A DNA stretch of 64,000 nt from positions 73,733 through 137,732 of the forward strand of contig CAZUOM010000002.1 in assembly GCA_964621305.1 (NCBI GenBank), read 5' to 3'. Under the pieces are notes generated by a model, which saw nothing but the letters and a program-made list of their open reading frames with translations, ran no database searches and was not told the origin of the DNA. Below are positions 23,255 through 51,813 of the stretch, piece by piece. Position 1 is the stretch's first letter, and the number at the start of each line of letters is the position of its first letter. Source of the DNA: an uncultured Gammaproteobacteria bacterium. GTDB lineage: Bacteria; Patescibacteriota; Microgenomatia; UBA10105; UBA927. The position numbers and the translations under genes were made by a program.

Positions 23255-23259
23255 GGCGA

Positions 23260-24963: not shown

Positions 24964-25061
24964 TATCAGAAGATATTATCGCAATTCTTCTTCTACATTA
25001 CCCGTTAGGCTTATAAACTGATGCTTTTCACTTATCGCTTTTCAATTTATACTAAGTCTAT

Positions 25062-26546: not shown

Positions 26547-26571
26547 CATGTGCATAATTATTTTGTAATAT
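26543..26571 (+). promoter_or_regulatory. sigma70-like promoter (TTGACA-17-TAATAT) upstream of the RHH-PIN module
   Basis: Read directly. Confidence 0.45.
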
Positions 26572-26574
26572 GTA

Positions 26575-27218: not shown

Positions 27219-27339
27219 ATTTCCCTGTTTTAACAACTCCATATCGTTATCCCTAAGCGCATCGTATGTGCAGCAGACCGTATCGCTCAAGAGGCATATG
27301 CCGTACAGGCAGAGAGAAGGAGCTAGTCGGGTTAAAGGG

Positions 27340-28857
27340 TTACTCCCATTCCATTGTCGCTGGGGGTTTAGTCGTAATGTCGTAGACGACGCGAGAAACT
27401 CTTGGGACCTCATTGACTATTCTTGATGACATAGCTGCGAGTACTTCGTACGGAAGATGCGACCACTGGCTGGTCATGATGTCCACAGATTCATACGCCC
27501 GGATGGCGACCACCTCGCCGAATACGCGGCCGTCGCCCTTGACTGCTGTGGAGTACGCGCCGGTCATGACGGCAAAGCACTGAAAAACGCTATCGTAAAG
27601 TTTTGCGGCTTTGACTTCTTCAACAACAATCCGATCCGCAATTTTTACCTGCGCGAGCCGAGCCTCGGTTACTTCGCCGCGGATCCTGACTGCGTAGCCC
27701 GGACCGGGAAAAGGATGTTCGGCGATGATGTCTTCCGGAAGCCCAGCGAGGCGGCCCAACTCACGCACTTCGTCTTTGTAGTAGTTGCGCAACGGCTCAA
27801 GAAGGGTAAGCTTTAAACTTTTTGGCAAGCCCCCAACATTGTGATGCGACTTGATATGGGAGGCGTGTTTGGTGCCTCTAGACTCAATCACATCAGAATA
27901 AATCGTCCCTTGGCCCAAAAAAGCGGCGTCTTTATATTTATTTGCCTCTTTTTGAAAAATGTCGATATAAAGTTTACCAATGGTTTTTCTTTTCGCTTCG
28001 GGATCTGTAACTCCCTTAAGCGCTGTTAAGAATCGTTTTTTTGCGTCAACAATAGTTAGTTTAGCCTTAATTAATTTATTAAAAATATACCGCACGCGTG
28101 CATCTGTTTCCGGACGCATGAGGCCACTATCAACGTAGATGGGAATAAGATTTTTGCCAATAGCTTTTCCAATTAAAAATGCGGCGACTGTTGAGTCGAC
28201 ACCTCCAGATACTGCACAGATAGCTTTTTTATTTCCAACTGACTCTTTAATACCCTGGATTATTTTTTGTAGACTAAGCGAAAGAGGGGTAAGTGTTTCA
28301 CCACAGACATCGCACGCAAAATTTTGAAGCATGGTAAGGCCCTGCTCTGTATGGTGTGCCTCCGGGTGAAATTGAACGCCAAACAACTGCCTGGTTAGGT
28401 CTACAACAGCGGCATTGATGACGCTTCTAGTTGAACCAGCGACCTCAAACCTCTTAGGCAGTCGGACGACCGTGTCTCCATGAGACATAAAAACAGAGCA
28501 GGATCGTTTCGGTAAAGAAAAAACGCCATCCTTTTTCTTAAACTGCACTTGTTGGGGGCCATATTCTTTCTGAGTGTTGCGAACTTCACCGCCCAAAAGT
28601 TTTGCCATCAGTTGCCAGCCGTAGCAGATAGCCAAAATGGGGATACCGGCATCAAATATTTCCGGATCAATTGTGGGCACTCCCTTGTCATAGACGCTCG
28701 CCGGCCCGCCGGAGAGGATTAACCCCTTCGGTTTCAGTAAAGAAATTTGTTCAAGCACATCCTCCGGATTTATAATGTTGACCGCAACACCTATGTCCCG
28801 TATCCGCCGGGCAATAAGATGCGCCATCTGTGAACCGAAGTCAACGATGAGAATCAT
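27340..28857 (-). CDS. guaA: GMP synthase (glutamine-hydrolysing)
   Basis: N-terminal GATase (MILIVDFGSQMAHLIARRIRDIGV) and SGGVDSTV PP-loop. Confidence 0.9.
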   Translation of the reverse strand: MILIVDFGSQMAHLIARRIRDIGVAVNIINPEDVLEQISLLKPKGLILSGGPASVYDKGVPTIDPEIFDAGIPILAICYGWQLMAKLLGGEVRNTQKEYGPQQVQFKKKDGVFSLPKRSCSVFMSHGDTVVRLPKRFEVAGSTRSVINAAVVDLTRQLFGVQFHPEAHHTEQGLTMLQNFACDVCGETLTPLSLSLQKIIQGIKESVGNKKAICAVSGGVDSTVAAFLIGKAIGKNLIPIYVDSGLMRPETDARVRYIFNKLIKAKLTIVDAKKRFLTALKGVTDPEAKRKTIGKLYIDIFQKEANKYKDAAFLGQGTIYSDVIESRGTKHASHIKSHHNVGGLPKSLKLTLLEPLRNYYKDEVRELGRLAGLPEDIIAEHPFPGPGYAVRIRGEVTEARLAQVKIADRIVVEEVKAAKLYDSVFQCFAVMTGAYSTAVKGDGRVFGEVVAIRAYESVDIMTSQWSHLPYEVLAAMSSRIVNEVPRVSRVVYDITTKPPATMEWE

Positions 28858-29093
28858 GGTGTTTGTCGAGAAAACCAGTAGATGGTTTTCTGGTCACGTG
28901 TGTTCACTACAAAGGCCGATGGCGTTTCAAAAGCTTGGTGGTAGACCTGCGGAGGCTCTGCATCTCGTTTTAGTGTCCACTCTTCAATGTGGAGCGACCC
29001 TTCACCTTTCTCCGCTGAAACCGTTACTGTTTCACCTGGACCGATGGCGACGGTGACCACTGTACTATCGATATAGATGTTCTTTTCTTCCAT
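28854..29093 (-). CDS. hypothetical small protein co-transcribed upstream of guaA
   Basis: 79-aa ORF overlapping the guaA start. No motif recognised. Confidence 0.35.
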   Translation of the reverse strand: MEEKNIYIDSTVVTVAIGPGETVTVSAEKGEGSLHIEEWTLKRDAEPPQVYHQAFETPSAFVVNTRDQKTIYWFSRQTP

Positions 29094-29129
29094 AGTTCAG
29101 ACGCAGCGCTAATACTGCAGCTTATATAG

Positions 29130-29711
29130 TCATTTAAGATAGTATTTTTTGACGAATTGTAGTTCTTGATCCGTATAGCCGAGCGTGTGTAAAAATCGCC
29201 GTGCTTCGGCGCTTGGTTTTTCTTCCTTTTTTAATTGTTTGCTAATAAGAATGGTCATTTCGGTGGGTTCATAAGGGAAAAGGATCCAACGGCTGGTTTG
29301 TTTGACGAAAAAGTCTGGTCGGTACACCGAGTGCGGCTTGTAAAAGAGCGTGGCGCTGGTTACAGTTGCCGGTCGGAAGCGGGAGAGATAGCGAAGAGCG
29401 CGTTTAAGGGTTTTGCCTGAGTCGGCGACGTCGTCGACGATCAGGACCTGCTTCCCACCAACTGGAGCGGTGAGTTTTCCGGTGATCTTCAACTCCCCCT
29501 GCGTTTGAATATCCGTGTAGCTTTGGATGGTGATGGTGGAGATGGGGATTTGGAGGAGATCGCTCATGAGGTGGCCAAGCGTCAAGCCGCCGCGGGCAAT
29601 GGCGACGATTTCATCTGGTTTATTCTTTTGCGCGAGGATTTTTTCCGCGAGGGATTGCGAGAGAGAGTGATATTCGTTCCACGAAACCGGTAGGTATTTT
29701 ATATCCGGCAT
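29130..29711 (-). CDS. hpt: hypoxanthine/xanthine-guanine phosphoribosyltransferase
   Basis: VLIVDDVADSGKTL is the PRT motif. Confidence 0.75.
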   Translation of the reverse strand: MPDIKYLPVSWNEYHSLSQSLAEKILAQKNKPDEIVAIARGGLTLGHLMSDLLQIPISTITIQSYTDIQTQGELKITGKLTAPVGGKQVLIVDDVADSGKTLKRALRYLSRFRPATVTSATLFYKPHSVYRPDFFVKQTSRWILFPYEPTEMTILISKQLKKEEKPSAEARRFLHTLGYTDQELQFVKKYYLK

Positions 29712-29758
29712 AAGCTATTATGCATCTGAAGACGTTTCGTTGTCAATCTGTTTGTGCA

Positions 29759-30148
29759 TTAGGGGAGGGGGCGGAGGCCGAAGAATTTGAAGTGGCGGTC
29801 AAAGGTGAGGATTTTTTTGGTTTTCAATTCTTTGCAGATTGCCACGGTGATGCAGTCAATAAGGGAGACATCTTTTTGGACTTTTGGATTGAGGAAAAGT
29901 GCGAGACCGGCCTGAAAACGTTCATGAGAGACTGGAAGGATGGTGTAATCGGCTAAAATTTTTTGGCATGCATCGATGCTCGCGATTTTTCCCATCCGTT
30001 GGCTCACGACGGTGAGCGTTTCTTTTATAACGTCTTCGGACGTGACGAGTTCGTTTTCGTCGGTGGGATAAAGACGCATGGCCCGAGAGAAGTTTCGGTC
30101 CGTGGTAAAGAAAAATGATACAAAAAAACTCGCGTCAACGAATATCAT
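29759..30148 (-). CDS. PIN-domain toxin
   Basis: MIFVDASFFVSFF.... Paralog of 26829-27218. Confidence 0.75.
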   Translation of the reverse strand: MIFVDASFFVSFFFTTDRNFSRAMRLYPTDENELVTSEDVIKETLTVVSQRMGKIASIDACQKILADYTILPVSHERFQAGLALFLNPKVQKDVSLIDCITVAICKELKTKKILTFDRHFKFFGLRPLP

Positions 30149-30426
30149 TGGTTTGCGTGCTTCTTCGGCGTTCCGTATACGTAGTGGTCAAGTTCAATAG
30201 AGACATCCGTGGGTGTTCCCGGCGGGGTAGGGTGTTTTTTATGAAATGCATCAAGCCACTTCAGAAAGTCCTGGCGGCGCTGTTTAGGCGTCAGCTTGGG
30301 TTCCACGTAGTGTTTGATAGACCTGCGTATGACGTCAGAGACAGAGGTGCCTTCTCGTTTGGCTTGCTCCTGGGCGAGTCGGTAAGTGGCCGGATCGATA
30401 TAGAGTTGCGTGCGTTTCATTAGCAT
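30145..30426 (-). CDS. RHH (CopG-family) antitoxin
   Basis: MLMKRTQLYIDPATYRLAQEQAKREGTSVSDVIRRSIKHYV. Confidence 0.7.
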   Translation of the reverse strand: MLMKRTQLYIDPATYRLAQEQAKREGTSVSDVIRRSIKHYVEPKLTPKQRRQDFLKWLDAFHKKHPTPPGTPTDVSIELDHYVYGTPKKHANQ

Positions 30427-30465
30427 ACATCATTAACATACATCATCAAATACTGTATGTCAAGT

Positions 30466-30493
30466 GCTTGACGGGTATCAAAGGGAGAATATA
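30466..30493 (+). promoter_or_regulatory. sigma70-like promoter TTGACG-16-TATAAT followed by AGGAG and ATG
   Basis: Read directly: ttgacgggtatcaaagggagaatataataggagcATG. Confidence 0.55.
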
Positions 30494-30501
30494 ATAGGAG
30501 C

Positions 30502-31101
30502 ATGCAAGCCCTGAAGTATGCCTCTGTCGCCATCTCCGGCAGGCCCGGGGCGGGTAGATCAACGCTTCTAAAAAATCTCCGGCAATACCTTGAGCCTCTC
30601 GGTTGGGAATTTTTTTCCGGTGGCGACTGGTCGCGGCAGTTTTCCATAGCCGCCGGCAAGCAGGATCCCAATGACCCCAAACATCATGTTGCCACTGACT
30701 ATGGAGACGAGATTGATCATCAAATTGATGCAGCGATGCGGCAGAAAGTTTCTGACCCAAATGTCCACATGGCAATTGAGTCCTGGATTGCAGGCTGGAA
30801 TGCACGAGAGATACAGCATGTTCTGCGTGTTCTTTTGATGTGCGATGACGCACTGCGTATAGACCGAATTGTCAACCGAGATGGAGTTGCTGTGGAAGAA
30901 GCAAAAAAACACTTGCGGGAGCGGGAGGAAACAAACCTTGGAAAATGGAAGCGTATGTACGGAGTCGACGACTTTTGGGACCCAAAACACTATGATCTGA
31001 TAATAAACACTTACTCACATAGCCCCAAAGAAACTCTTGATCTTGTCCTTCAGGCCCTCGGCTACTTTTCCGCAAACGGACAGCAAAAAGAGACAATATG
31101 A
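30502..31101 (+). CDS. cytidylate-kinase-like AAA-family nucleotide kinase
   Basis: ISGRPGAGRSTL is a P-loop. About 199 aa, resembling archaeal-type CMP kinase. Confidence 0.55.
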   Translation: MQALKYASVAISGRPGAGRSTLLKNLRQYLEPLGWEFFSGGDWSRQFSIAAGKQDPNDPKHHVATDYGDEIDHQIDAAMRQKVSDPNVHMAIESWIAGWNAREIQHVLRVLLMCDDALRIDRIVNRDGVAVEEAKKHLREREETNLGKWKRMYGVDDFWDPKHYDLIINTYSHSPKETLDLVLQALGYFSANGQQKETI

Positions 31102-31155
31102 CTCCGAAGACATAAATTTGACAATTTGTACATATTGTACTAATATAGATTTTGT

Positions 31156-31437
31156 ATGACGATTACTGTCTCCATCAGCCAGTTTCGACAAAACATGTCA
31201 AAGTACCTTCTCGGGAGGCAGGAAGGTGACATCATTAGGCTTAAAGACGACAAGCGGGGAGTGTATATTGCTGACGTTATTCCTAGAAAAACGTTTGATC
31301 CTGTGGCTTTTGAGAGAGCACTGCAGGAGTCGGCAGGAGTATTCACTGCAAAGAACCATCCTGAATGGCGTACCAAAAGAGATGTGATCAGGTGGGTGCG
31401 AAAAGAACGGAAAGCCGCGGATCGCTGGTTTAATTGA
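31156..31437 (+). CDS. Phd/YefM-like antitoxin
   Basis: MTITVSISQFRQNMSKYLLGRQEGDIIRLKDDKRGVYIA. Confidence 0.6.
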   Translation: MTITVSISQFRQNMSKYLLGRQEGDIIRLKDDKRGVYIADVIPRKTFDPVAFERALQESAGVFTAKNHPEWRTKRDVIRWVRKERKAADRWFN

Positions 31438-31441
31438 GGGT

Positions 31442-31822
31442 ATGTTTCTTATAGACACGGACATTCTTATATGGGTGCTGCGAGGAAACAAAGAGCATGT
31501 TGAGCTGCTCCGGCATCTCAAGGAGCAAAAACCACTTTCCATATCAGCTATAACGGTCGCGGAAGTATACAAAAACACTTTTGCCGTAGAACTTCATCGT
31601 ACAGAGAAGATGTTAAACGAATTATATTTATGGGATGTAAACCGGCCCATTGCCAGACAGGCAGGGTTATATTGGCAGCAATTTGCCAAGCAGTTTAAAA
31701 ATCTTCATATCCTCGATTGTATTATAGCCGCGACGGCTCGAGAGCACAATCTTGAGCTCATAACACTCAACACGAGGCATTTCCCCATGGCAGATATCAT
31801 TGTGGGGAAGTTTCACGCCTAA
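31442..31822 (+). CDS. vapC: PIN-domain toxin (VapC)
   Basis: MFLIDTDILIWVLRGN... Confidence 0.8.
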   Translation: MFLIDTDILIWVLRGNKEHVELLRHLKEQKPLSISAITVAEVYKNTFAVELHRTEKMLNELYLWDVNRPIARQAGLYWQQFAKQFKNLHILDCIIAATAREHNLELITLNTRHFPMADIIVGKFHA

Positions 31823-32909: not shown

Positions 32910-33030
32910 TCGAACACAGATTTTTTTCTTTGTTTTTTTGACATTAGTTTTTTGCCGTACTTTTTCCTCACAAAAAGTCTCCTGAAGCTAAAAAATCCTG
33001 TTGATTTTTTTTGATATAGAAATTGCCAGT

Positions 33031-33060
33031 TGACGAGGTTTTATTTGCCTTATATAGTGG
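33031..33060 (+). promoter_or_regulatory. candidate promoter of nrdR (TTGACG ... TTATATAG)
   Basis: Read directly. Confidence 0.35.
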
Positions 33061-33106
33061 CTAATTGTTTACCCATGCCACACATATAGCGTTTGAGTTT
33101 TCATTC

Positions 33107-33553
33107 ATGAAATGTCCGTATTGCAACAATCATGACAGTGATGTAATAGAAACGCGAGACAGTGAAGACTTAACGGTTACACGAAGAAGAAGGGTTTGTC
33201 CCAAGTGTGCGAAGAGGTTTACGACCTACGAGAGAGTTGAAACAGTACCGCTAACAGTCATAAAAAAAGACGAGCGGCGAGAAACATTTGACAGGGAAAA
33301 ACTGCGACGCGGCATTTGGCGGGCAAGCGGTAAAACAAAGATAAAAGCCGACGACGTTGACCGAATTGTTGATGAAGTCGAACGTGAACTAATCGCCGGC
33401 GAGACGACCGAAGTATCTAGCAAAAAAATAGGAGAGCTGGTTGCCAGGCGACTTAAGAGACTCGATAAGGTGGCATACATCCGATTTGCTAGTGTATTTA
33501 GAAGATTTGTAGATGTTGAAGATTTTGAGAAAGAAGTAAAAAAATTGCTTTGA
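33107..33553 (+). CDS. nrdR: transcriptional repressor NrdR
   Basis: MKCPYCNNHDSDVIETRDSEDLTVTRRRRVCPKCAKRFTTYE carries the Zn ribbon and ATP-cone. Confidence 0.9.
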   Translation: MKCPYCNNHDSDVIETRDSEDLTVTRRRRVCPKCAKRFTTYERVETVPLTVIKKDERRETFDREKLRRGIWRASGKTKIKADDVDRIVDEVERELIAGETTEVSSKKIGELVARRLKRLDKVAYIRFASVFRRFVDVEDFEKEVKKLL

Positions 33554-33673: not shown

Positions 33674-36079
33674 ATGCAACTTACCGGTATTCGTCAACAA
33701 GTATTTCTTGACCGATACGCCAAGAAGGATGAGGCGGGTAAGCCCATTGAGCAAACGCCTGAGGAAATGTGGCGAAGGGTTGCTCATGCCATTGCCCAGG
33801 TGGAGTCAAAAGCCAAGCGTGATGAGTGGGAAGAAAAATTTTACAACGCGATGCAGGACTTCGTTTTGGTTCCAGGCGGACGGATTCTTTCCGGGGCAGG
33901 AACCGGATACAAGGTGACGTTTTATAATTGCTTCGTAATTCCCAGCCCGCAGGATTCCCGTTCCGGCATCCTCAAAACGCTTGCCCAGATGGTGGAGATT
34001 ATGTCCCGCGGTGGGGGGGTAGGGATCAACCTCTCCAGTCTCCGTGGCAGGGGGACTCGGGTGAAGAAGGTCAACGGGTTTTCCTCCGGCCCCTGCAACT
34101 GGGCGGAGCTTTTTTCCGTAGCAACAAAGGACATCATCCAACAGGGTGGCAGTCGTAGGGGCGCCCTCATGCTTATGCTCTGGGACTGGCATCCGGATAT
34201 TGAAGAATTTATTACGGTCAAGCAGGACCTTTCTCGCATCAACGGCGCAAACCTATCCGTTTGCGTGTCTGACGCATTCATGGAGGCGGTCAAAAACGAT
34301 AGGGACTGGGAGTTGGTTTTCCCGGACATTGATGATCCGGAGTATGACGAAGAGTGGGATGGGTATTTGCCCAACTGGATAGCGCTTGGCAAAAAAGTTA
34401 TCGTCCACAAAACTGTCAAAGCACGTACTATTTGGGACATGATTGCTCAGGCGGCATGGAGAAGTGCCGAGCCAGGTGTCGTCTTTATGGAACGGTACAA
34501 CAAGTGGTCTAACAATTATTACTGGGAATATATCAACTGTGTTAATCCTTGCGGTGAAGAGGGGCTTCCGAACTACGGGGTCTGCAATCTTACCTCCATT
34601 AATCTTTCAGCGCTCGTAAATGATCAGGGGGAGATGAATTATGAAAAACTTGCTGAAATTGCAAAAATCGGCGTCCGGTTTCAGGATGATGTCGTTGACG
34701 GAGACTTCTATGTATTTCCGGAAATTAAAAAGCGCCAGGTCGAAGGGGAGCGCCGGATCGGTCTTGGAACCGTGGGATTAGGGGATGCGCTTATCAAAAT
34801 GAAACTCCGTTACGGCTCCAAAGAAAGCCTGCCGGTGATTGACAGAATTTACCGGACGGTTCGCGACGCAGCCTATGCGACATCTGTTGATTTGGCTCGC
34901 GAAAAAGGCCCTTTTCCGGCAATTGACAAGAAAAAACACCTGGAGGGGTATTTTGTGAAACAGTTGCCGGAGGAAATACGCGAGAAAATGAAGAAGTGGG
35001 GAGTGCGCAACTCTGTCATTCTCCAACAGGCACCAACAGGCACAACGTCTCTTCTTTCCGGGGTTTCCAGCGGGATTGAGCCTGTGTATGAGTTCGAGAT
35101 GATCCGACACGACCGGCTAGGCGAGCACATCCTTCGGCACCCACTTTATGAAGCGTGGCATGAGGAGTTTAAAAAAATTCATGGTCGGGAGCCTGCAAGA
35201 GAAAGCCGGCCGGCACATTTTGTTTCCGCAAACGACTTATCACCTGAAGACCATGTTTCCGTACAGGCAACCATTCAGAAATACGTGGATGCTTCAATCA
35301 GTAAAACCGTGAATGCCCCCAACAGTCATACGGTTGAGGATGTGAAAAAACTTTACACTCTGGCTTACGAGCTTGGGTGCAAAGGCATTACCTACATGCG
35401 CGAAGGGAGCCGCCCGGGAGTCCTTTCCCGGCCGGATGAAAAAAACGGAGTTTCGCCGAATGGACAGGTGGCGGTAAAAGTTGAAGGCCACTACGTGCCG
35501 GAAGTCAAACCTCGTCCAGTGGTCGTGCACGGTTCCACCTACCAGGTAGAAACGCCCGTAGGTCAAGCGTACGTGACGATCAATACCAATGGCGGCAACC
35601 AGCCGGTGGAGTTATTTGTTAATGTGGGCAAAGCAGGAAGTGACGTGACGGCGATGGCGGAGGCGCTGGGACGCTTAGCATCCCTCATGCTTAGGATTGC
35701 TTCGCCAATAACTCCCATGGACAGGGTGCATAAAATCGCCTCAGAATTGATTGGCATCGGCGGCGCCCGTTCCCTGGGGTTTGGTGAAAATCGGGTGCGG
35801 AGCTTGCCGGATGCAGTTGCCAAAGTGATAGACCGGCACTTTGGGTTTTTTAAAAAACAGGAGATTGGGACAACTCTACCAACAAATGGACAGAAAAACG
35901 GACGCGTGCAGCCCGTTGTTGAGCCGGCGGAAAAACCGTTTGATCCGCGGCCCCAACAGATGGTGGTTACCGAAAAACGGGTAGTGACGGTGGACTTGTG
36001 CCCCAACTGCGGGGAAGGAAGTTTGGTTTTTGAGGAATCCTGCAAAAAATGTTACTCGTGTGGATACTCCGAGTGCTAA
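33674..36079 (+). CDS. nrdJ: class II (adenosylcobalamin-dependent) ribonucleotide reductase
   Basis: 801 aa. GVCNLTSINLS active-site region and C-terminal CPNCGEGSLVFEESCKKCYSCGYSEC Zn ribbon. Context: NrdR and a PduO-type adenosyltransferase. Confidence 0.8.
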   Translation: MQLTGIRQQVFLDRYAKKDEAGKPIEQTPEEMWRRVAHAIAQVESKAKRDEWEEKFYNAMQDFVLVPGGRILSGAGTGYKVTFYNCFVIPSPQDSRSGILKTLAQMVEIMSRGGGVGINLSSLRGRGTRVKKVNGFSSGPCNWAELFSVATKDIIQQGGSRRGALMLMLWDWHPDIEEFITVKQDLSRINGANLSVCVSDAFMEAVKNDRDWELVFPDIDDPEYDEEWDGYLPNWIALGKKVIVHKTVKARTIWDMIAQAAWRSAEPGVVFMERYNKWSNNYYWEYINCVNPCGEEGLPNYGVCNLTSINLSALVNDQGEMNYEKLAEIAKIGVRFQDDVVDGDFYVFPEIKKRQVEGERRIGLGTVGLGDALIKMKLRYGSKESLPVIDRIYRTVRDAAYATSVDLAREKGPFPAIDKKKHLEGYFVKQLPEEIREKMKKWGVRNSVILQQAPTGTTSLLSGVSSGIEPVYEFEMIRHDRLGEHILRHPLYEAWHEEFKKIHGREPARESRPAHFVSANDLSPEDHVSVQATIQKYVDASISKTVNAPNSHTVEDVKKLYTLAYELGCKGITYMREGSRPGVLSRPDEKNGVSPNGQVAVKVEGHYVPEVKPRPVVVHGSTYQVETPVGQAYVTINTNGGNQPVELFVNVGKAGSDVTAMAEALGRLASLMLRIASPITPMDRVHKIASELIGIGGARSLGFGENRVRSLPDAVAKVIDRHFGFFKKQEIGTTLPTNGQKNGRVQPVVEPAEKPFDPRPQQMVVTEKRVVTVDLCPNCGEGSLVFEESCKKCYSCGYSEC

Positions 36080-36169: not shown

Positions 36170-36709
36170 ATGTCGATCTACACCCGTACCGGTGACGACG
36201 GAACGACCGCGCTTTTTGGCGGAAAGAGGGTCTTAAAATGCGAAGATCTCGTGGATGCCTATGGTTCTTTAGATGAGCTCAATTCGTGGGTTGGATTCAT
36301 CGCCTCGCAGAGTAAAGAACAGAGCGAGAAAAAATTTCTTCAAACAATACAATCAGACCTTTTTACCATTGGGAGTACGCTGGCCGGATGGAAGGGGGAT
36401 ATAACACAACTGGGCAAACGCGTTATAGAAATGGAACAATGGATCGACCGGATGGAAAAAGTCCTGCCAGAACTTACGAACTTTATTCTTCCCGGCGGGT
36501 CAACCAACGGAGCACGAGTTCATTTGGCGCGAAGCGTTTGCCGGCGGGTTGAACGAAAAATTGTTGCGTTGAAGAAAAAACAAGAGGTTGATCTATCTAT
36601 TATTGAATATCTTAACCGTTTTTCGGACTTGCTATTTACTCTGGCGCGAATTATAAATAAGGACGCAAACGTACCAGAAATAATTTGGAATAGTAGAAAA
36701 AAAGCTTGA
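36170..36709 (+). CDS. PduO-type ATP:cob(I)alamin adenosyltransferase
   Basis: MSIYTRTGDDGTTALFGGKRVLKCEDLVDAYGSLDELNSWVG is the PduO-family N-terminus. Confidence 0.85.
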   Translation: MSIYTRTGDDGTTALFGGKRVLKCEDLVDAYGSLDELNSWVGFIASQSKEQSEKKFLQTIQSDLFTIGSTLAGWKGDITQLGKRVIEMEQWIDRMEKVLPELTNFILPGGSTNGARVHLARSVCRRVERKIVALKKKQEVDLSIIEYLNRFSDLLFTLARIINKDANVPEIIWNSRKKA

Positions 36710-36877
36710 TTGGGGGAATCGTGGTGCAATCCCACGGCTGTGCCGCAACTGTATAGCCAGACTACCCAATCACGCGTCATCCCAGCATCACCAGAATGTG
36801 CTGGGTAAACCTTCGAGCAAAGGGCAGTTTTTATACGCGCCTTCTCGCTCGAGGAGGTTTTTTGATGGGAAATAGAT

Positions 36878-38728
36878 ATGGGTAAATTTAATAAGGAAGT
36901 TTTTAGGATATCCTACGAGGTTTTGAAAAAAAAAGTTGTTGCGGCAAACCCCGACTTTTCCGAGCACGACATTAACATCGAAACGGCTCAGCGGTTCCGC
37001 CCGCGGTTTTTCCTTGACATGGCAACTGTTCGCCACGAAGATCGGGGGACAAAAAAATACGCCGTTGGCGACATAGAGCTTTTATCTACCGGAGACATTT
37101 ACTATAGGCAATATGGCGTAACCTTAGAAGAACTTAATGAAAATACTCGATTATATAATCCAAACGCTTACTTAGTAACTGACCATCAAGCCTCACGGCT
37201 GGCGGCACAAAGGTTACACGCAGGAGCTTCAATCGTAGCTTTTGCTTCCGCTAGGAAAGGCAGCGATAACCGGGATATTCAGGTTCTCACAATTGATCCG
37301 GTAACAAAAAAAGGAATATCCATAACCATAAACGCCGCCTCAGACGGAGGGCTTCATACGTTTTCAGAAATGCAGAGAGTGATTCAAAACTTATTTCCAG
37401 AGCTCACTCAAGTTCAACCTCAAGAGAATGTAAGCATTTTTACTGATAGACCAACTTCTGTTGAAAGAGCTCGCCAGATTGTTTCAAGAGTCAATTTTAG
37501 CCAGCAGCTGCGGACAGGAAAAGTAGTTAGGGAAAACAATCATGATATGCAGAAAAGGACTAATGATTTTAGAGCGTTTAGGTCACAAGACGACAAAAAG
37601 TTAACAGTCGTGAAAACAGAGACAAAAATAGCAAATGACCGACGCCGAGCGATACGTGACATTTTTGTCTATCGTCAAAAAGGCTGGATAGAGTTACAAC
37701 CGAATCAATCGATAAACCGAGGTTATGAAAAAATAAAACATATTATTATTGATGCAAACCAAAGGCGTTACACCGACATGAAAAAAACGGCTCTTACGCT
37801 TTGGTTTGCAGGTAAAACTCAGGTTGCCATTGGTGCTGTTCCACTGTTGGTTGCCTCTTTGGCAAAAGAAATACCCCAGCCGCTGCGAGCGGTTGAAAAA
37901 AGCATTGCGCGGCATCAAAAGAAAGAGGCAAAAAGGCTCTATAAAGAAAAAAAGAAGATTAGGGAACGACAAAAAAGGCATGCTCAAGAGAGCATTGAGA
38001 GAGGTAGAAAGATGGATATTGAAGATAAACTGAGAAGGCGCGAACCGAAACAAAAAAGAAAAAAGTCACAAAAAGAACGCACCGTTTTTTCTAAAGAAAC
38101 GCAGCGAAAAAAGAAAAAAGATAAGCCATTTCAATTCAAGGAGCAACGGGAGAAGAAACAAACGAAATATGTAGAAAGGTCAAAGATGAAAAAGGGAAAA
38201 GAAAGGTTTGTTAAAAAAGAAAAAAGGCTTACCAAGAATACGGAAAAAATGAAGAGGGGCGTTGTTAAGATGTGCACAGAAAAGGCATTAATACGAGCCC
38301 TTACTTTATGGGCAAAAAAATTGAAACAGAAGCGAGAAGAAGGCGAGAGCAGGGCAATTAGAACGGTATCAAAAAAAATAGAGGAATTGTTACGGTCACC
38401 AACTCTTTCCAAAAAAGCTGGGAAAGAACAAATCCCCACTGTAGGTTTTTCTTTTGCCTGGATTTTATGGCTTTTATTTGAACCATCGAGAAGAAGGCGG
38501 CTACGCCCAAAAGTAGGTAGGGCTGACAACTTAGGAAAGACAGAAATTATTCCAGAGGGGATAATAACTCAAGAGCAGAGACAGTGGCTGCTTTTGTGTA
38601 TCATTTGGTATTTGACTATGATACAGGAGACGGGATTAGGAAACAAAAAAAATTACAAACATGCTGGACATCATTTGCCCAAGCCTTTTGCCCAAACAGG
38701 CGTAATTTTTGCGTATCAATCGTGGTAG
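36878..38728 (+). CDS. hypothetical 616-aa protein with ~350-aa N-terminal domain and a long K/R/E-rich low-complexity segment
   Basis: No recognised motif. First gene of a three-gene cluster ending in a VirD4/TraG-like ATPase. Confidence 0.6.
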   Translation: MGKFNKEVFRISYEVLKKKVVAANPDFSEHDINIETAQRFRPRFFLDMATVRHEDRGTKKYAVGDIELLSTGDIYYRQYGVTLEELNENTRLYNPNAYLVTDHQASRLAAQRLHAGASIVAFASARKGSDNRDIQVLTIDPVTKKGISITINAASDGGLHTFSEMQRVIQNLFPELTQVQPQENVSIFTDRPTSVERARQIVSRVNFSQQLRTGKVVRENNHDMQKRTNDFRAFRSQDDKKLTVVKTETKIANDRRRAIRDIFVYRQKGWIELQPNQSINRGYEKIKHIIIDANQRRYTDMKKTALTLWFAGKTQVAIGAVPLLVASLAKEIPQPLRAVEKSIARHQKKEAKRLYKEKKKIRERQKRHAQESIERGRKMDIEDKLRRREPKQKRKKSQKERTVFSKETQRKKKKDKPFQFKEQREKKQTKYVERSKMKKGKERFVKKEKRLTKNTEKMKRGVVKMCTEKALIRALTLWAKKLKQKREEGESRAIRTVSKKIEELLRSPTLSKKAGKEQIPTVGFSFAWILWLLFEPSRRRRLRPKVGRADNLGKTEIIPEGIITQEQRQWLLLCIIWYLTMIQETGLGNKKNYKHAGHHLPKPFAQTGVIFAYQSW

Positions 38729-38737
38729 AATGATCGT

Positions 38738-39178
38738 ATGTATACGTCTGCCCGATCTTCTTCGGACGATCAAACAGTAAGCTTGCCACAACAGTCGGTT
38801 TCTGGGGGTGGAGTGGCAATTGGTAAAGAGGTTGAGGTGGTAGGAGTTAGTAGGGTAGAAGCGGCTGCCATCAAAGAGATCGGACGAGAGATTGAGTTGC
38901 CGCCAAATGTCACAAACGCCGGTGTTCAAGTGCGCCCAACAACAGTGCAGATTCCCAAGCCAGTTGCCCAGATGGGAGTAAAACCAGCTGGCCAAACAGT
39001 TATGCCGCCTGCTGTTTCGGTTTCCTTACCGCTTTCCGATGAGCAGATTGCTAAGGGGATGCACCAGGGCATCACAAGTTCCTGGCGCTGGCTTGCCGAG
39101 TGGTGCCGCCGACGGCTCAAACAGGCCCACATTGTGCTCAAAACTTTTCATGGGAAGATTGCGCGGGTGAAATCATGA
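38738..39178 (+). CDS. hypothetical 146-aa protein
   Basis: ORF with ATGA coupling to the downstream ATPase gene. Confidence 0.5.
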   Translation: MYTSARSSSDDQTVSLPQQSVSGGGVAIGKEVEVVGVSRVEAAAIKEIGREIELPPNVTNAGVQVRPTTVQIPKPVAQMGVKPAGQTVMPPAVSVSLPLSDEQIAKGMHQGITSSWRWLAEWCRRRLKQAHIVLKTFHGKIARVKS

Positions 39179-41523
39179 ACGACCAATTTTTAGATCTTAT
39201 CTATAGACTTGAGGTTTTTGGTATAAGCCTACTGCTTATGATCCTCTTCATTGTTGGGTTTATTGTCTTGGGCTATATGTTATTTCTTGCTTGGAAATAT
39301 CGTAATCGAGAACAACACAGCTTGGACACTGTGCTCTTGCAGGTGGCAGTTCCCAGAGACAATGAGATAAAAATTGACGCGGCAGAGCAGATGTTTGCTA
39401 GCCTCCATAGTCTGTATCACGATGATAAATTGGCATTTCTTAAACCTCAAGAACATCTTTCTTTTGAGATTGTTGCAAAGCGGGAGGACGTCCGTTTTTA
39501 TGTGGCCATTCCCAAAAAACATAAAGATTTAGTTGAAAAACAGATCCATGGGTCTTATCCTGGAGCCGACGTCCGTGAGGTCGAAGAATACAATATCTTT
39601 TCAGAAAATGGTAAGGTAGCCTTTGCGGCTCTCCGGCTAAAAAACGCAAATTTTTGCCCAATTCGTATCTACAAAGATTTGCCGGTTGATCCATTATCCA
39701 CAATCACGTCAGTGCTTGCTAAAATGGGGGAGGGGGAGGGAGCAGCCATTCAAGTTCTGGTTCAACCAACCGGCGGAAAATGGAGAAGACAAGGTAGAGG
39801 ATATATTGCTCACGTTAAAAAAATCGAAGCAAACCCAGAAAAAGCGAGCTTTAAAGTTGACCAAAAAACGCTAGAAGCAATCGAACACAAAATTAGCAAA
39901 TCCGGTTACCACGTGGTCGTGCGGCTTGTAGTTTCTTCAACGAGCGAAGAGGGAGCCAAGCATCATCTGGAAAATCTCATTACTGCATTCGGACAGTTTG
40001 TCAGCGACCAGAACCATTTTTTCAAAGTCAAATTTCCCATTAAAAAACTGTTCATGGTGGATTTTGTTTACCGCTACTTTCCATATATTAACCCGCCAAT
40101 TTTTTCCCAATACAGCGTTCTTAACAGCGATGAGTTGGCAACCATTTATCATTTCCCCAACAAGTCTATTGAAACACCCCACATATTTTGGCTTAATGCG
40201 AAACGCGCTCCAGCTCCCATGCAAATTCCCCAGTCGGGATTGTTTTTAGGCATTTCTCGTTACCGGGGGGTTGACCGGTCGATTTATATAAGCGATGAAG
40301 ATCGAAGGCGCCACATGTATGTGATTGGGAAAACCGGGACTGGCAAATCGCAATTACTTGAGGAGATGATCATGCAGGACATTAAAAATGGAAAAGGCCT
40401 GGCGGTTGTAGATCCTCATGGAGATCTTATTGACGGGATTATGTCGAGGATGCCGCCGGATCGGGCAGAGGACATTATTTATTTTGACCCGGCCGATGAA
40501 GAACGGCCTATGGGACTCAACATGTTGGAAGCAAAAACCGAGCAGCAGAAACATTTCGTAGCAACAGCTATTGTAGGCCTCATGTATAAACTTTATGATC
40601 CGCAAAAGACCGGCATAATTGGTCCCCGATTTGAACACGCTATCCGAAATGCGATGCTTACGGTTATGTGCGAGCCGGGCAACACGTTTGTGGAAATCGT
40701 ACGGGTTTTGACTGACAGTGCATTCGTCCAAGAGTTATTGCCCAAAGTGCAGGATCCGATTATCCGTCGATATTGGACCGATCAAATAGCGCAAACGGCA
40801 GACTTTCATAAATCCGAGGTCCTTGACTACATCGTATCCAAGTTCGGTCGGTTCGTTACCAACAAGCTTATGCGCAACATCATCGGTCAGTCTGTTTCCA
40901 GCTTTGATATGCGAAAAGTAATGGATGAGGGAAAAATTCTTTTAGTGAATCTATCGAAAGGAAAAATGGGAGAGGAAAATAGTAATTTTTTGGGGCTTAT
41001 TCTCGTACCTCGCATCTTGATTTCCGCTATGAGCAGACAAGAGATCCCCGAGGATCAACGGCGGGATTTTTACCTCTATGTTGATGAGTTCCAAAATTTT
41101 GCGACTCCTGACTTTGCTCAGATACTCTCCGAAGCTCGTAAATACCGGCTCAATTTGGTTGTTGCCAATCAATTTATTGGGCAAATGGAGGAGGAGGTCA
41201 AAAATGCCATTTTTGGTAACGTAGGGACCGTGACAGCCTTTCGCGTTGGGGTAACGGATGCTAATTATCTTCAGCACGAGTATCAACCGACGTTTAATGA
41301 GACCGACCTCATCAATATTGAAAAATATAATGCCTATATTAAGACAACTGTCCATAACGAACCAGTGAAACCATTTAGTATAGATTTGACTAAGGACATG
41401 AAAAAGGTCACTGCCGAGCGAAATTCACAAATCGGCAAAGCGATTGTGGAACTATCCCGCCTCAAATACGGTCGGAGCAAAGAGTTGGTGGAAGCAGAAA
41501 TTGCGCAACGGGCACGCCTCTGA
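39176..41523 (+). CDS. VirD4/TraG/TraD-like type IV coupling-protein-family ATPase with two N-terminal TM helices
   Basis: Start MNDQFLD at 39176. TM region FGISLLLMILFIVGFIVLGYMLFLAW. Walker A VIGKTGTGKSQLL, Walker B LYVDEFQNF, and a TraG-D_C-like ARKYRLNLVVANQ segment. Confidence 0.7.
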
Positions 41524-41572: not shown

Positions 41573-42601
41573 ATGCGCATTGCTTTTACGTTTAATGTCA
41601 GACATGTTGCTGCCGCCCTTGAAGGGCAGGCGCAGGACGAGGCCGAATTTGATGAGCCTGCTACAATTGCGGCAATTCACAATGCTATCGTATCCAATGG
41701 ATACGAATGTGTAGACGTAGAAGCAAACGAAGAAGCTTATCTCAAATTAAAAAAGTTAAAAGGGAGTATAGACTTGGTTTTCAACATTGCCGAGGGGCTC
41801 CGCGGCGAGATCCGCGAGGCACAGATTCCGGCAATACTTGAGATCCTCGGGATCCCTTATACTCACTCCGGAGCTCTAACCCAAGCGATTAACCTTGATA
41901 AATCCCTCACCAAAAAAATTTGGCAGTACCACGGGGTGCCAACGCCTAGGTTTGTTGAGATAGGGCCAAAAGATAAACCATACGTTGAGGGTCTGCGTTT
42001 TCCGGTTATAGTCAAACCCAACAGTGAAGGATCCAGCAAGGGAATCTTTAACGATAGTCTTGTCGAAGTTGCGCAGAATTTACCAGCTAAAATTCACCAG
42101 ACCCGCAAGGCTTTTGGCAACGGCGTGCTTGTCGAAGAGTTTATGCCGGGGCGGGAATTTACTATTACAGTAATGGGCAACCCGGGGACAGGGAAGGGGG
42201 TTTATATGCTTCCGACTGTCGAACAGAATTACGACGTGGTGCCGGCAAAATATAAAAAATTTGCCTCCTACGAGGTAAAATGGCTTTTTGAGGATAAGTT
42301 GCCGGACGTGCGGGCAGCCTACATTTGTCCGGCCAAGCTTGATGCGAAGTTGGAAAAGCTTATTGCCGAGCATTGCATAAAAGCATTCACTGTTCTTAAT
42401 TGCCGTGACATTGCGCGCATAGACATTCGGCTAGATCTTTCCGGCAATCCTCACCTGCTTGAGCTTAACACGCTTCCTGGCATGATGCCGGACCCCAATG
42501 TTGTTTCCTATTTCCCCGTTGCGGCCCGAGCAGCCGGTTGGGATTTTAACCGGATGATTGGGCAAATCATTATTCACGCGAAAGAACGCCTTGGAATGTG
42601 A
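41573..42601 (+). CDS. ddl: D-alanine--D-alanine ligase family ATP-grasp enzyme
   Basis: Start MRIAFTF at 41573. ...FPVIVKPNSEGSSKGI... and LNTLPGM are ATP-grasp motifs. Confidence 0.75.
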   Translation: MRIAFTFNVRHVAAALEGQAQDEAEFDEPATIAAIHNAIVSNGYECVDVEANEEAYLKLKKLKGSIDLVFNIAEGLRGEIREAQIPAILEILGIPYTHSGALTQAINLDKSLTKKIWQYHGVPTPRFVEIGPKDKPYVEGLRFPVIVKPNSEGSSKGIFNDSLVEVAQNLPAKIHQTRKAFGNGVLVEEFMPGREFTITVMGNPGTGKGVYMLPTVEQNYDVVPAKYKKFASYEVKWLFEDKLPDVRAAYICPAKLDAKLEKLIAEHCIKAFTVLNCRDIARIDIRLDLSGNPHLLELNTLPGMMPDPNVVSYFPVAARAAGWDFNRMIGQIIIHAKERLGM

Positions 42602-42763: not shown

Positions 42764-44578
42764 ATGCCAACCGAAAGAGCAGAAGCCAATTTGTTGCCTG
42801 ACTTAACGCCGAATCAGGTACAAGCAAAAAAGCAAATCCTCAATTTATTGAAATCGTTTTCTCCTACAAAGAAAGCGCTTGTGGTCGTTGAGGGGTTTTC
42901 TGGTGTCGGTAAATCGTTTGTTCTCCAACATCTTGAGGCGGAAGCTATGGAAAAAAAATTTATAACGCCTGGTGAGCGAAGGGACATTCAAAGTCTTTTA
43001 GGACAGATAATCTCTGATGCTAGCTGCGCAGGAGCAGTTATAAGTGTTGGTCCAGGTGAAACTAGACTTGGCAAAGAAAATATAGATTTTCTAGCTAGTC
43101 AAGCAGGGCTTAAGACGATTTCTGTCATTTTGCCAGGAATGGACAGAAAAGAAACGGAGGAATATCTTAAAAAAAATTTTTTAACAGTAGCCGAAGCACC
43201 GCTATCAAAAGATCAGTTAGCACGTTATTCTTTAGGGATTCCGTTGTTGGCGAGACGTTTGGTTGAGGGGGCGGTGAACGATCAACAAGCAATAGAATTA
43301 GTTGCCGAATATCTCTACGAAGTCACGCCAAAAGCGCTGTTAGACCCTGAAGTCGGAGTTTTAGAAAATTTTAGACAAGGGTTTTTTCGTCAACCTTTTC
43401 CTCAAGAGATAATTACTCGGCTTACAACAATTATCGTGGAAAAACGGAAACAGTTTTTGACAGAAGGAATACGATCGTATTTGGCAAAAACGAGAGACCG
43501 ATGGAATAAATTAAAAGAAGAGGGAATTGATGAAATTCCTGCCACTCCGCTAACAGAAGAAACCACTCAGATGTATATTCTTTCGGCCATAAATCGGCCC
43601 GAAGCAGCACTTTTCGGAATGATGCGGCACATAGAAATATTGGCGCCCGGCCTAAGCCAAGAAACATTCGAAAAAATACAACACAGTTTGGGGTTTGAGG
43701 TCGGTCGCTATGGTAAGCCAGAGAAGATTCCGAGAGGAAAGATATTTACTATAGAGGACGATAGATTGATTATTGCCGCATTTACCACCGATGGTACAGT
43801 ATACCTTCACGAAGGAAGGAGGGCGCATCAAGAGAACGGAGTTCACGTTGTCACTAACAGCGCAAAAAAAATCGTAGATCGAGCAAGAGCTGCAACATTA
43901 ATCCCAACAGAAACTCCACTTGGTAATGCAATCTATATGGAATATTTTGATCACGGCAATCTTCCAAACGACGCCATCAAAGCCGGCCTCATGGTAGAGA
44001 CGCTTTTGCAACACGTAGGCGTACCCTACTACGCGGTAAATACGTACGCGGGCAAAGAGTACGCGTATGTTCCGGAAGAAAATCGTTATTATATGCCACT
44101 AACTGAACAGACTCTATCTATCCGGGATATCCTTAATAACAAGGGTTTATCTGGTGTTGAAGAAGAGCTTAAAAGCCGAGGTGCTGACGAAGGCGTCATA
44201 CGAGAACACCTAGCTAAAGATCCACGAACGCGGCGGTTGCTTTTCGGAATTCCTAAAAACGTGTCGCTTTCATCCCTTCGGTCTATTTTGGAACAAAAAA
44301 TCAAGTTAGAGACAAATCCTGAGAGGCTGAAGGGGTTTGAATATTTGCAAGAAGATATTAAATTTAGCAGTAGTAGTTCATGGTCACTCTTAAGCGCTAG
44401 AGCAAAACTTGAAGTTTATGAGTTTGAGGCGATCGAAAAATTGAGAAAGATACTGTTTAGCGAGAATTTAGAGGAAAGAGCGAAAGTTGAAAACGGGTTA
44501 GATATGGCCACGGATTATGCCGTTATTCAAAAATTAAAAACTGAGATCACTGCGAAAATAATGAAGACAAGAAAGTAA
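42764..44578 (+). CDS. hypothetical 604-aa protein with N-terminal P-loop NTPase-like domain
   Basis: VVVEGFSGVGKSFVL is Walker A-like. The rest is unrecognised. Confidence 0.55.
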   Translation: MPTERAEANLLPDLTPNQVQAKKQILNLLKSFSPTKKALVVVEGFSGVGKSFVLQHLEAEAMEKKFITPGERRDIQSLLGQIISDASCAGAVISVGPGETRLGKENIDFLASQAGLKTISVILPGMDRKETEEYLKKNFLTVAEAPLSKDQLARYSLGIPLLARRLVEGAVNDQQAIELVAEYLYEVTPKALLDPEVGVLENFRQGFFRQPFPQEIITRLTTIIVEKRKQFLTEGIRSYLAKTRDRWNKLKEEGIDEIPATPLTEETTQMYILSAINRPEAALFGMMRHIEILAPGLSQETFEKIQHSLGFEVGRYGKPEKIPRGKIFTIEDDRLIIAAFTTDGTVYLHEGRRAHQENGVHVVTNSAKKIVDRARAATLIPTETPLGNAIYMEYFDHGNLPNDAIKAGLMVETLLQHVGVPYYAVNTYAGKEYAYVPEENRYYMPLTEQTLSIRDILNNKGLSGVEEELKSRGADEGVIREHLAKDPRTRRLLFGIPKNVSLSSLRSILEQKIKLETNPERLKGFEYLQEDIKFSSSSSWSLLSARAKLEVYEFEAIEKLRKILFSENLEERAKVENGLDMATDYAVIQKLKTEITAKIMKTRK

Positions 44579-44652: not shown

Positions 44653-44913
44653 ATGATCTATACTGCGGTGATTAGACAGCGGGGACAACTCACGGTTCCC
44701 GACCGGATACGGGACATCCTGTCTTGGCTTCGGACCGGATCGGTAGTTGGCATTGAAGTGACTGGTGACGAATTACGCCTTACCCCTCATACGAAGACCA
44801 TGAAACCTATTGACTGGGACGCCTTTTTTTCCAAAATTCACTTAGCACGGTCATTTCGGGGGAAACGGGGAAACCTTTCTGCTGCGGTGGCAGAAGATAG
44901 AGAGAATCATTAG
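44653..44913 (+). CDS. AbrB/MazE-type antitoxin
   Basis: MIYTAVIRQRGQLTVPDRIRDILSWLRTGSVVGIEV is the SpoVT/AbrB motif. Confidence 0.7.
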   Translation: MIYTAVIRQRGQLTVPDRIRDILSWLRTGSVVGIEVTGDELRLTPHTKTMKPIDWDAFFSKIHLARSFRGKRGNLSAAVAEDRENH

Positions 44914-44914
44914 C

Positions 44915-45343
44915 ATGGTCAAACCGACAAAATTAGTCGTCGACTCTTCAGTATTGGTGAAGTGGGTAAATAGCCAGGATGAACAATATCTTGCACAAGC
45001 CGACGCCATAGCCCGCGACTGCAGAAGGGGAAAAGTCCTCTTGCTAGCCCCGGAATTAGCAAAGTACGAAGTAGCTAATGCACTGTGGAAAAAGGGGCTG
45101 CCGGCGCCGCAAGCCCAAGCATCTCTGGGAACGATTTACGTCTCCCCAGTAGAGTTTGTGAAGCAGGATGAGCAACAGGCGATGCGAGCAATGGAGATAG
45201 CCATCGCCACCCCGATGACCTTTTACGACGCCTCATCTTTAAGCCTTGCGGAATCTGTTGGAGCCACACTCGTTACAGATAATCCAAAACATCAGAAGAA
45301 GGTAAAAGGAGTAAAAGTAGTTTCGCTCAAAGACTATCAGTAA
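44915..45343 (+). CDS. PIN-domain toxin
   Basis: LVVDSSVLVKWVNSQDE... Confidence 0.75.
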   Translation: MVKPTKLVVDSSVLVKWVNSQDEQYLAQADAIARDCRRGKVLLLAPELAKYEVANALWKKGLPAPQAQASLGTIYVSPVEFVKQDEQQAMRAMEIAIATPMTFYDASSLSLAESVGATLVTDNPKHQKKVKGVKVVSLKDYQ

Positions 45344-51811: not shown

Positions 51812-51813
51812 CA

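Follow-up and report, generated by a model that had tools for sequence, protein, structure and literature searches.

An orphan coupling-protein ATPase with a small partner gene, and a cobalamin riboswitch-controlled gene, at a ribonucleotide reductase locus of Patescibacteria

Patescibacteria account for a large part of bacterial diversity and subsist on other cells, and their exchange of material with hosts is poorly understood. We describe here a cluster of three genes (genes 1 to 3) from a stretch of 64,000 nucleotides of contig CAZUOM010000002.1 (the window, that is, the whole stretch of DNA that was analysed), whose closest relatives are annotated as Gottesmanbacteria (Microgenomates, within the candidate phyla radiation, CPR), and whose third gene encodes an ATPase of the type IV coupling protein (T4CP) type. 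A recent survey of Patescibacteria counted 5,713 VirD4-like T4CPs in 2,918 genomes, only 148 of them near virB4 (5,565 unlinked), and found VirB4 in 2,417 of 3,035 genomes and relaxases to be rare (PMC12102498). The authors considered that an exaptation of these proteins could not be ruled out (PMC12102498, Quinonero-Coronel et al. 2025). Going by the sections of that survey on which we draw, gene 3 fits this known class of orphan T4CPs, being likewise chromosomal, far from virB4 and without a relaxase; the same sections mention neither a small partner gene nor a promoter-like motif, conservation at the level of a reductase, or a fixed position beside nrdJ, pduO and a riboswitch.

Gene 3 departs in several ways from the better known members of its family. 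TrwB of R388, VirD4, TraD, DotL, Cagbeta and the T4CPs of monoderm plasmids classically have two transmembrane (TM) segments, whereas gene 3 has a single predicted one; compared with conjugative T4CPs, it adds an alpha/beta N-terminal domain of about 280 residues, has no relaxase or type IV secretion system (T4SS) gene as neighbour, and is chromosomal and core. From VirB4/TrwK it differs by the lack of any VirB4 sequence signal, the structural likeness to these proteins coming from a low-confidence model. Gene 1, on the other hand, invites comparison with vitamin B12 (cobalamin) uptake operons (btuFCD, ECF-CbrT, BtuM, BtuG-type), since an adenosylcobalamin (AdoCbl) riboswitch likewise stands directly before it, but it is a mosaic protein with a helical region rich in lysine, arginine and glutamate (K/R/E), has no signal peptide, and has no similarity to known binders or transporters. 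A literature search on DUF8128, on DUF6580 and on riboswitches and cobalamin in Patescibacteria found nothing, nor did we come across a previous account of the partner gene, of the promoter-like motif, of the reductase-level conservation, of the link to a B12/reductase locus, or of the riboswitch-controlled slot that holds gene 1.

We think that the cluster consists of two units, a B12-regulated cargo gene (gene 1) and a domesticated orphan T4CP pair (genes 2 and 3), and we give this reading a somewhat better than even chance of being correct. The three open reading frames (ORFs) are exactly those delimited in an earlier note on this DNA, which had also rightly placed them between the reductase and PduO genes and ddl; the riboswitch and the hairpin ahead of gene 1 had been overlooked there. 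The features concerned are the following.

36704 to 36775, + strand: AdoCbl-II (cobalamin) riboswitch aptamer (Rfam RF01689)
36839 to 36864, + strand: terminator-like hairpin followed by six T, probable expression platform (pattern scan and fold)
36878 to 38728, + strand: gene 1, riboswitch-controlled cargo gene, 616 aa (ORF, slot position)
38723 to 38731, + strand: extended -10-like motif TGGTAGAAT, 6 nt before the ATG of gene 2 (motif enrichment at gene 2 starts)
38738 to 39178, + strand: gene 2, 146 aa, constant partner of gene 3 (ORF, synteny)
39175 to 41523, + strand: gene 3, T4CP-type ATPase, 782 aa (ORF, Pfam domains)

The coupling-protein ATPase and its small partner

By its domain matches, gene 3 is a member of the VirD4/TrwB/TraG coupling-protein family. 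TrwB_AAD_bind (PF10412) reaches 39 bits (cut-off 20.5), TraG-D_C (PF12696; residues 633-697) 27 bits (cut-off 22) and T4SS-DNA_transf (PF02534) 23.7 bits (cut-off 20.1), DUF87 being matched as well, and both the Walker A motif GKTGTGKS (residues 385-392) and the VDEFQNF of the Walker B region (residues 636-642) are invariant in 50 relatives. The VirD4/TraG-like assignment of the earlier note is thus supported by hidden Markov model (HMM) searches. The only solved structures related to gene 3 by sequence are those of TrwB and DotL. All the curated NCBIfam models for T4CPs (TraD and CD1115 VirD4-like proteins among them), VirB4 and HerA nevertheless remain far under their cut-offs, the best T4CP scores being 50.3 bits (cut-off 366) and 37.9 bits (cut-off 250), and because it falls so far below these equivalog cut-offs we regard gene 3 as belonging to a distinct T4CP subfamily. 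A VirB4 signature could not be detected (15.7 bits for TIGR00929, against a cut-off of 643), and residues 1-350 gave no Pfam match, CagE_TrbE_VirB included; the precomputed annotation of gene 3 and its relatives places an alpha/beta domain, DUF8128 (Pfam PF26449), at residues ~50-330.

The protein was thought to cross the membrane twice, but this has to be corrected: since there is a single N-terminal hydrophobic stretch (hydropathy windows over residues 4-43), modelled as one helix, gene 3 is predicted to have one TM segment as its anchor and not the classical pair. The model also contains a helical insertion at about residues 456-570, a possible counterpart of the all-alpha domain inserted in the ATPase domain of T4CPs, but the pLDDT (the confidence score of the model) is only 43-74 there. 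A translated plasmid search with gene 3 returned 351 records, 49 of which cover at least 80% of the protein at 24-30% identity; these plasmid relatives come mainly from Streptomyces and Firmicutes, some also from haloarchaea and Sulfolobus. A Bacillus subtilis plasmid protein aligns with residues 95-771 (25% identity, E 6e-51), and its gene adjoins those for a replication-relaxation protein, TcpC, TcpE and an AAA_10 ATPase, while the haloarchaeal homologue of Haladaptatus comes after a VirB4-like ATPase. As these homologues match from end to end and sit in conjugation clusters, gene 3, DUF8128 domain included, can be described as a coupling protein of the monoderm type. The two closest plasmid matches were uninformative, one from Priestia (unannotated, with an ORF that looks disrupted, 534 aa plus 159 aa) and one from Streptomyces (locus unannotated). 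We also discarded a role in defence: the PADLOC matches to mad8 (1.9e-17) and to HerA reflect the generic ATPase domain, and there is no defence-system context.

Relatives of gene 3 were confirmed in at least 572 species genomes (GTDB, in a collection with one genome per species). Our comparison of loci, with our own ORF calls and iterative HMMs, covers the best 80 of these at least 572 loci, which carry working labels (L001, L002 and so on) and come from Gottesman-, Woese-, Levy-, Beckwith- and Curtissbacteria, among others. With the window copies as reference, the median identity is 76% for gene 3, 74% for the ribonucleotide reductase (RNR), 69% for the ligase Ddl and 60% for PduO, and gene 3 exceeds the reductase in 35 of 41 paired comparisons; across candidate phyla its identity stays at about 65-83%. 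Its chromosomal neighbours are kept across the five lineages just named, and its G+C content (0.437) is close to the window mean (0.463), with 0.41 for gene 1 and 0.53 for gene 2. No VirB4, VirB6 or relaxase gene was found among the Pfam-annotated neighbours in the window (from about 16.8 kb to 51.4 kb), in agreement with the earlier note, no relaxase or T4SS channel gene among the neighbours classified in the 80 loci, and no relative of gene 3 on IMG/VR viral contigs. The best-supported reading is that gene 3 is a domesticated, core chromosomal gene that is vertically inherited. A coupling ATPase as well conserved as ribonucleotide reductase across candidate phyla must have a central task.

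Gene 2 is the constant companion of this ATPase: in 70 of 73 loci, the gene immediately before gene 3 is a homologue of gene 2. The family comprises 472 clusters at 50% identity, all of stand-alone proteins (69-202 aa, mostly 110-200), and has no match in Pfam, NCBIfam or PADLOC, so that the description of gene 2 as a 146-aa protein of no known family still holds. It is less conserved than its partner (median identity 45% against 76%). Residues 1-100, of which 69% are P, V, Q, S, G, A or T, are of low complexity besides short motifs and probably disordered, and they precede a conserved C-terminal helix, LPL[TS]xxQIxxG[LM]HxxIxSSWRWLAEWCxRRLK. The ATG of gene 3 overlaps the stop codon of gene 2 as ATGA, the coupling that had been reported before. 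We think that gene 2 is probably an adaptor that docks onto gene 3 by its C-terminal helix, the two proteins being predicted to interact. An apparent gene 2-gene 3 fusion in locus L033 turned out to be an artefact of a run of N in the assembly and was dropped as evidence for such an interaction.

A further, frequent feature of the pair is a promoter-like motif. Of 70 gene 2 starts, 43 have the sequence TGnTAnnAT 5-7 nt ahead of the ATG, compared with 22 of the 1136 starts of other ORFs, and the motif is there whether the preceding gene is gene 1, a DUF6580 gene or a pyruvate kinase gene, or whether there is only an intergenic spacer or nothing on that strand. In the window, the motif includes the stop codon of gene 1. 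It may be read as an extended -10 promoter for a leaderless mRNA of genes 2 and 3. The gap before gene 2 is -59 to +50 nt in most loci, the upstream gene is co-directional in 64 of 67, and genes 1 and 2 overlap in about ten loci (a DUF6580 gene and gene 2 overlap by 4 nt in L043). In four loci (L005, L061, L071, L076), genes 2 and 3 occur after a pyruvate kinase gene or genes of the opposite strand, with no detectable riboswitch. We can now assign to gene 3 a defined partner protein, a probable promoter and a constant place in the genome.

The riboswitch, gene 1 and the variable slot

The element at 36704-36775, which begins at the stop codon of pduO and finishes about 100 nt ahead of gene 1, is by its Rfam score an AdoCbl-II riboswitch (RF01689, 40.4 bits against a gathering score of 36.5). 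Two relatives also pass this threshold (38.7 and 37.5 bits), and a covariance model built from these three copies and run on 82 sources gave 47 matches at E<=0.02 in 45 of them, all upstream of gene 3 and on its strand. Upstream sequence of 4.5 kb or more is available for 55 loci, and 41 of these have the riboswitch. In an alignment that was fitted to the model and is therefore biased towards the structure, 85% of the cells in the aptamer helices are paired (67% in shuffles), double-change cells number 216 (67 in shuffles), and the covariation score is 0.457 (0.151 in shuffles, no more than 0.122 with the partner slid). Double changes affect 15 of 24 aptamer pairs, and one helix reaches 100% pairing, four of its five pairs showing compensatory changes.

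A hairpin with a T-run lies 3' of the aptamer in 23 of the 47 matches, against 25 of 235 control windows, and in many aptamers without it the next start codon comes within about 30 nt. We kept only this riboswitch-adjacent hairpin from a generic scan for sigma-70 promoters and terminators, whose counts were not above the shuffled expectation (the extended -10 motif was tested separately). Since the riboswitch and hairpin are just upstream, gene 1 can be placed in the B12 regulon, the element being predicted to respond to its cobalamin ligand. Between the T-run of the terminator and gene 1, at 36865-36885, there is also a mini-ORF of six codons (ATG GGA AAT AGA TAT GGG TAA), whose stop codon overlaps the start region of gene 1. 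Two of the loci have two cobalamin riboswitches each, at 4802-4877 and 5852-5931 in L031 and at 5304-5415 and 6126-6205 in L055, every one of them before a different slot gene.

Gene 1 has four parts, an alpha/beta N-terminal domain (residues ~8-193), a variable linker, the K/R/E-rich helical region (residues 336-520) and a hydrophobic C-terminal module. The extreme K/R/E stretch that the earlier note had pointed out is real (51% of residues 336-520, against 21% of residues 1-335), but it is not conserved, K+R+E varying from 0.17 to 0.31 across the relatives of gene 1; the best-conserved part is instead the C-terminal motif W..LL.IIWYL..I.E ... G.IFAY. In a collection of 5.8 billion proteins, only three relatives turned up, a profile search included: a single-sequence search with the N-terminal domain gave one relative, and a 33-sequence profile gave four proteins including the query, so that no deep alignment was possible. 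The median identity is 27% where the proteins can be aligned. They are assembled as mosaics, L027 and L031 having the N-terminal domain with another C-terminal half and L008 the C-terminal module only. Structure prediction, which the earlier note had suggested, yields the alpha/beta domain (~8-193) followed by long charged helices, but in a weak AlphaFold model (pLDDT 54) for which Foldseek found no credible fold match in the PDB (best E 0.011, probability 0.15).

What follows the riboswitch is variable: the first gene is gene 1 for 19 matches, a DUF4430 protein for 11, a member of a family of about 600 aa for five and PduO for three. DUF4430 is the C-terminal domain of B12 binders of the transcobalamin type (PMC4350170). 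Both the DUF4430 proteins (one TM segment) and the DUF6580 proteins (several TM segments) score well above their Pfam thresholds, and both are predicted to be B12-uptake proteins. In L054 (3889-6554), the riboswitch is followed by a DUF4430 gene, a gene for a 444-aa prenyltransferase-like alpha/alpha-toroid protein, and a DUF6580 gene. We take the first two proteins to resemble the two domains of transcobalamin, and the set looks like a split transcobalamin-type binder with a membrane component, that is, a candidate B12 uptake system for Patescibacteria. Another slot family (373-440 aa), with a GGSCGAS-like motif and a C-terminal zinc ribbon with a double CxxC, occupies the place immediately ahead of gene 2 in loci of the Levy and Woese types (L050:5887-7203, L055:6269-7432, L063:6217-7539, L064:4566-5705, L078:6324-7445). 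No Pfam match was found in the three members tested, and it may be one more B12-regulated protein.

Because DUF4430 and DUF6580 genes of B12 type occupy it in relatives, we consider the slot to be a B12 regulon slot, and for the same reason we regard gene 1 as a candidate accessory factor for cobalamin acquisition or handling; it probably helps in one or the other, judging from its regulation and position. The earlier idea of the trio as a single module stands only in part. The three genes do recur together in relatives, but gene 1 also moves with the riboswitch apart from genes 2 and 3 and is replaced elsewhere by DUF4430 or DUF6580 genes. A gene of the gene 1 or 600-aa type comes right after the riboswitch in L005 and L066, away from genes 2 and 3, and in L062 a DUF4430-DUF6580-600-aa block is likewise apart from them. 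Gene 1 with its riboswitch is thus a unit separate from genes 2 and 3, a fast-evolving cargo restricted to some lineages. The slot proteins (gene 1, the 600-aa family, the zinc-ribbon family, DUF4430/DUF6580) are prime candidates for obtaining the B12 that the only reductase of these reduced bacteria needs.

Two units or one machine

The two-unit reading is built on observations (gene family assignments, riboswitch, synteny, conservation levels and motif enrichment) that would fit together as follows. When AdoCbl is plentiful, the aptamer would favour the hairpin and T-run, and gene 1 would be off; when B12 is scarce, transcription would read through and gene 1, as an accessory factor with some part in cobalamin chemistry, would be on. 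Genes 2 and 3 would be transcribed, probably as a leaderless mRNA, from a separate promoter of the extended -10 type that overlaps the 3' end of the gene before them, and because of this promoter-like motif their expression would be independent of B12, with some additional read-through possible at low B12. Gene 2 would act as a small partner, translationally coupled to the membrane-anchored gene 3 ATPase. We infer that the latter forms a hexamer and, acting in trans, it would be the substrate receptor and motor of the relaxase-less T4SS that most Patescibacteria encode elsewhere.

Several points weigh against this reading. Gene 1 has no similarity to B12-binding or transport families (in Pfam, NCBIfam, PADLOC and the fold search), and as it has no signal peptide and only weak hydrophobic segments with positive charge on both sides, it can be assigned to the envelope only tentatively. 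The model of gene 3 is of low confidence (mean pLDDT 61, with a poor ATPase domain), and its best structural match is VirB4 and not a T4CP. A T4CP homologue (not necessarily the orthologue of gene 3) is listed as non-essential in a cultivated Saccharimonadia strain, in the sections of the survey used here (PMC12102498). The terminator scan of the window gave no + strand terminator between gene 1 and genes 2 and 3, and with gaps that are mostly short or negative, read-through from the riboswitch could add to the expression of the pair, which may therefore be partly B12-responsive, something that a pure T4SS-coupling role does not explain. Finally, the tight link of genes 2 and 3 to the nrdJ/pduO locus across deep divergence is an unexplained synteny, and it is this persistent linkage that keeps alive the two hypotheses discussed next.

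In the first of these, genes 2 and 3 (with gene 1 where it occurs) would be a stand-alone translocase that scavenges DNA or deoxynucleotides, a back-up supply of precursors beside the sole reductase, boosted by riboswitch read-through when B12 shortage puts that B12-dependent enzyme out of action. A parallel exists in other bacteria, where B12 riboswitches switch on B12-independent reductases. The position downstream of nrdR, RNR and pduO in most loci, the co-directional upstream genes (64/67), the short or negative gaps and the lack of a terminator from gene 1 to gene 3 all suit this hypothesis, as do the DNA-translocase type of the ATPase superfamily, the K/R-rich region of gene 1 (which could bind nucleic acid) and the GMP synthase, phosphoribosyltransferase and cytidylate kinase genes of the window. 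That region, however, is not conserved in gene 1 relatives, the pair has its own promoter-like motif and occurs without a detectable riboswitch in the four loci mentioned above, and the annotated neighbours include neither a DNA-binding domain nor a gene for ComEC, a pilus or a nuclease. To our knowledge, moreover, no T4CP works without a channel, and we hold this scenario to be unlikely. The other hypothesis, that genes 2 and 3 energise or assist the capture or import of cobalamin together with the slot proteins, for instance by taking cobalamin or proteins that bind it from the host cell, can point to the place of the pair, always next after riboswitch-controlled genes of B12 type, to the overlaps with DUF6580 (L043) and gene 1 (about ten loci), and to the read-through that would reach it. 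We know of no B12 transporter with an ATPase of the T4CP type, and the pair, with its own promoter-like motif, persists where neither riboswitch nor B12 gene is detected nearby and is conserved far above the B12 slot genes; this seems to us quite improbable. Taken in the broader form of a machine that all three genes build under B12 limitation, its expression raised by read-through when the sole, B12-dependent reductase fails, for importing DNA or deoxynucleotides or for taking cobalamin from the host, the idea is distinctly unlikely, but, if true, it would give a T4CP a new physiological role and define a new class of B12-riboswitch target.

The hypotheses that treat gene 3 as a displaced or division protein fare worse. 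The earlier note had also envisaged the remnant of a conjugative element, and indeed gene 3 is of the T4CP family, its nearest relatives outside the CPR are plasmid conjugation proteins, and a tyrosine recombinase gene lies 4 kb downstream. A decaying conjugative or integrative element would not be expected to retain an intact ORF with reductase-level conservation in the same chromosomal context in at least 80 species genomes, with normal composition (G+C 0.437 against 0.463), no relaxase or T4SS gene nearby and no IMG/VR relative; the recombinase gene, for its part, is beside DivIC in the related locus L002/L003 too, as is typical of a chromosomal Xer-type gene. We consider the remnant hypothesis hardly credible and effectively excluded. 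The other suggestion of the earlier note, a minimal module for DNA uptake or export, is neither backed nor contradicted by our observations. Very improbable is an FtsK-like housekeeping role, with gene 3 moving chromosomal DNA as the cell divides and possibly working alongside the nearby Xer-type recombinase and the products of the DivIC, SpoIID and ATP-grasp genes. A single TM segment, an ATPase of the FtsK/HerA superfamily, very strong conservation, the division and wall genes downstream and a weak match to FtsK_SpoIIIE (17.8-19 bits, cut-off 24) speak for it. But this match stays under its threshold when the T4CP domains exceed theirs, an FtsK gamma domain is lacking, and the proteins that align with gene 3 from end to end are coupling proteins of conjugation. 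We thus return to the reading of two units, with the remark that, should these prove to be transcriptionally coupled, vitamin status would be linked to a secretion-type motor.

The conserved locus and other genes of the window

The consensus order of the locus is nrdR, ribonucleotide reductase, pduO, riboswitch, variable slot, gene 2, gene 3 and ATP-grasp gene, and genes 2 and 3 lie downstream of nrdR, RNR and pduO in most loci with enough upstream sequence. The context genes in the window are listed below.

33065 to 33553, + strand: NrdR-like repressor gene, first of the conserved locus (family represented ahead of the RNR gene by 36 ORFs in the loci compared)
33674 to 36079, + strand: ribonucleotide reductase large chain with TSCPD domain (Pfam Ribonuc_red_lgN, Ribonuc_red_lgC and TSCPD, assigned on the identical gene in L001)
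36170 to 36709, + strand: PduO-type cob(I)alamin adenosyltransferase (PF01923 Cob_adeno_trans), upstream of the riboswitch in most loci
41573 to 42601, + strand: ATP-grasp gene of the D-Ala-D-Ala ligase type (PF07478)

The product of the first gene is presumably NrdR-like, from a zinc-ribbon and ATP-cone pattern judged by eye, and the top sigma-70-like match of the region (33030-33058) is ahead of it. The reductase would be a class II, B12-dependent enzyme, given its TSCPD architecture. In five loci (L040, L043, L051, L060, L063), the ORFs at the reductase position are 1152-1190 aa long, about 350 aa above the usual size, and may contain intein insertions. Downstream of gene 3, most relatives have a different ATP-grasp gene (465 aa), with a pre-ATP-grasp domain.

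Toxin-antitoxin pairs (PIN, PhdYeFM, MazE, RHH and a Fic-MerR gene) are unusually dense at about 16800-31500 and at 44653-45343, and the three nucleotide salvage genes mentioned above are found among them. Between tRNA-Ile(TAT) and a PIN toxin pair, the + strand of the window encodes a 604-aa protein (42764-44578) whose N-terminal P-loop match (AAA_16/NACHT-like) is below threshold and leads to no family assignment; the gene is missing there in most related loci. An annotation look-up for the protein at 53381-55018 gave no record. A group I catalytic intron is present at 55582-55828 (+ strand; Rfam 62.1 bits, gathering score 50), adjoining tRNA-Met (55423-55495, - strand); neither an rRNA nor a recognisable host gene was called in its surroundings. 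The tmRNA gene (51419-51814, + strand), right after smpB, is ordinary.

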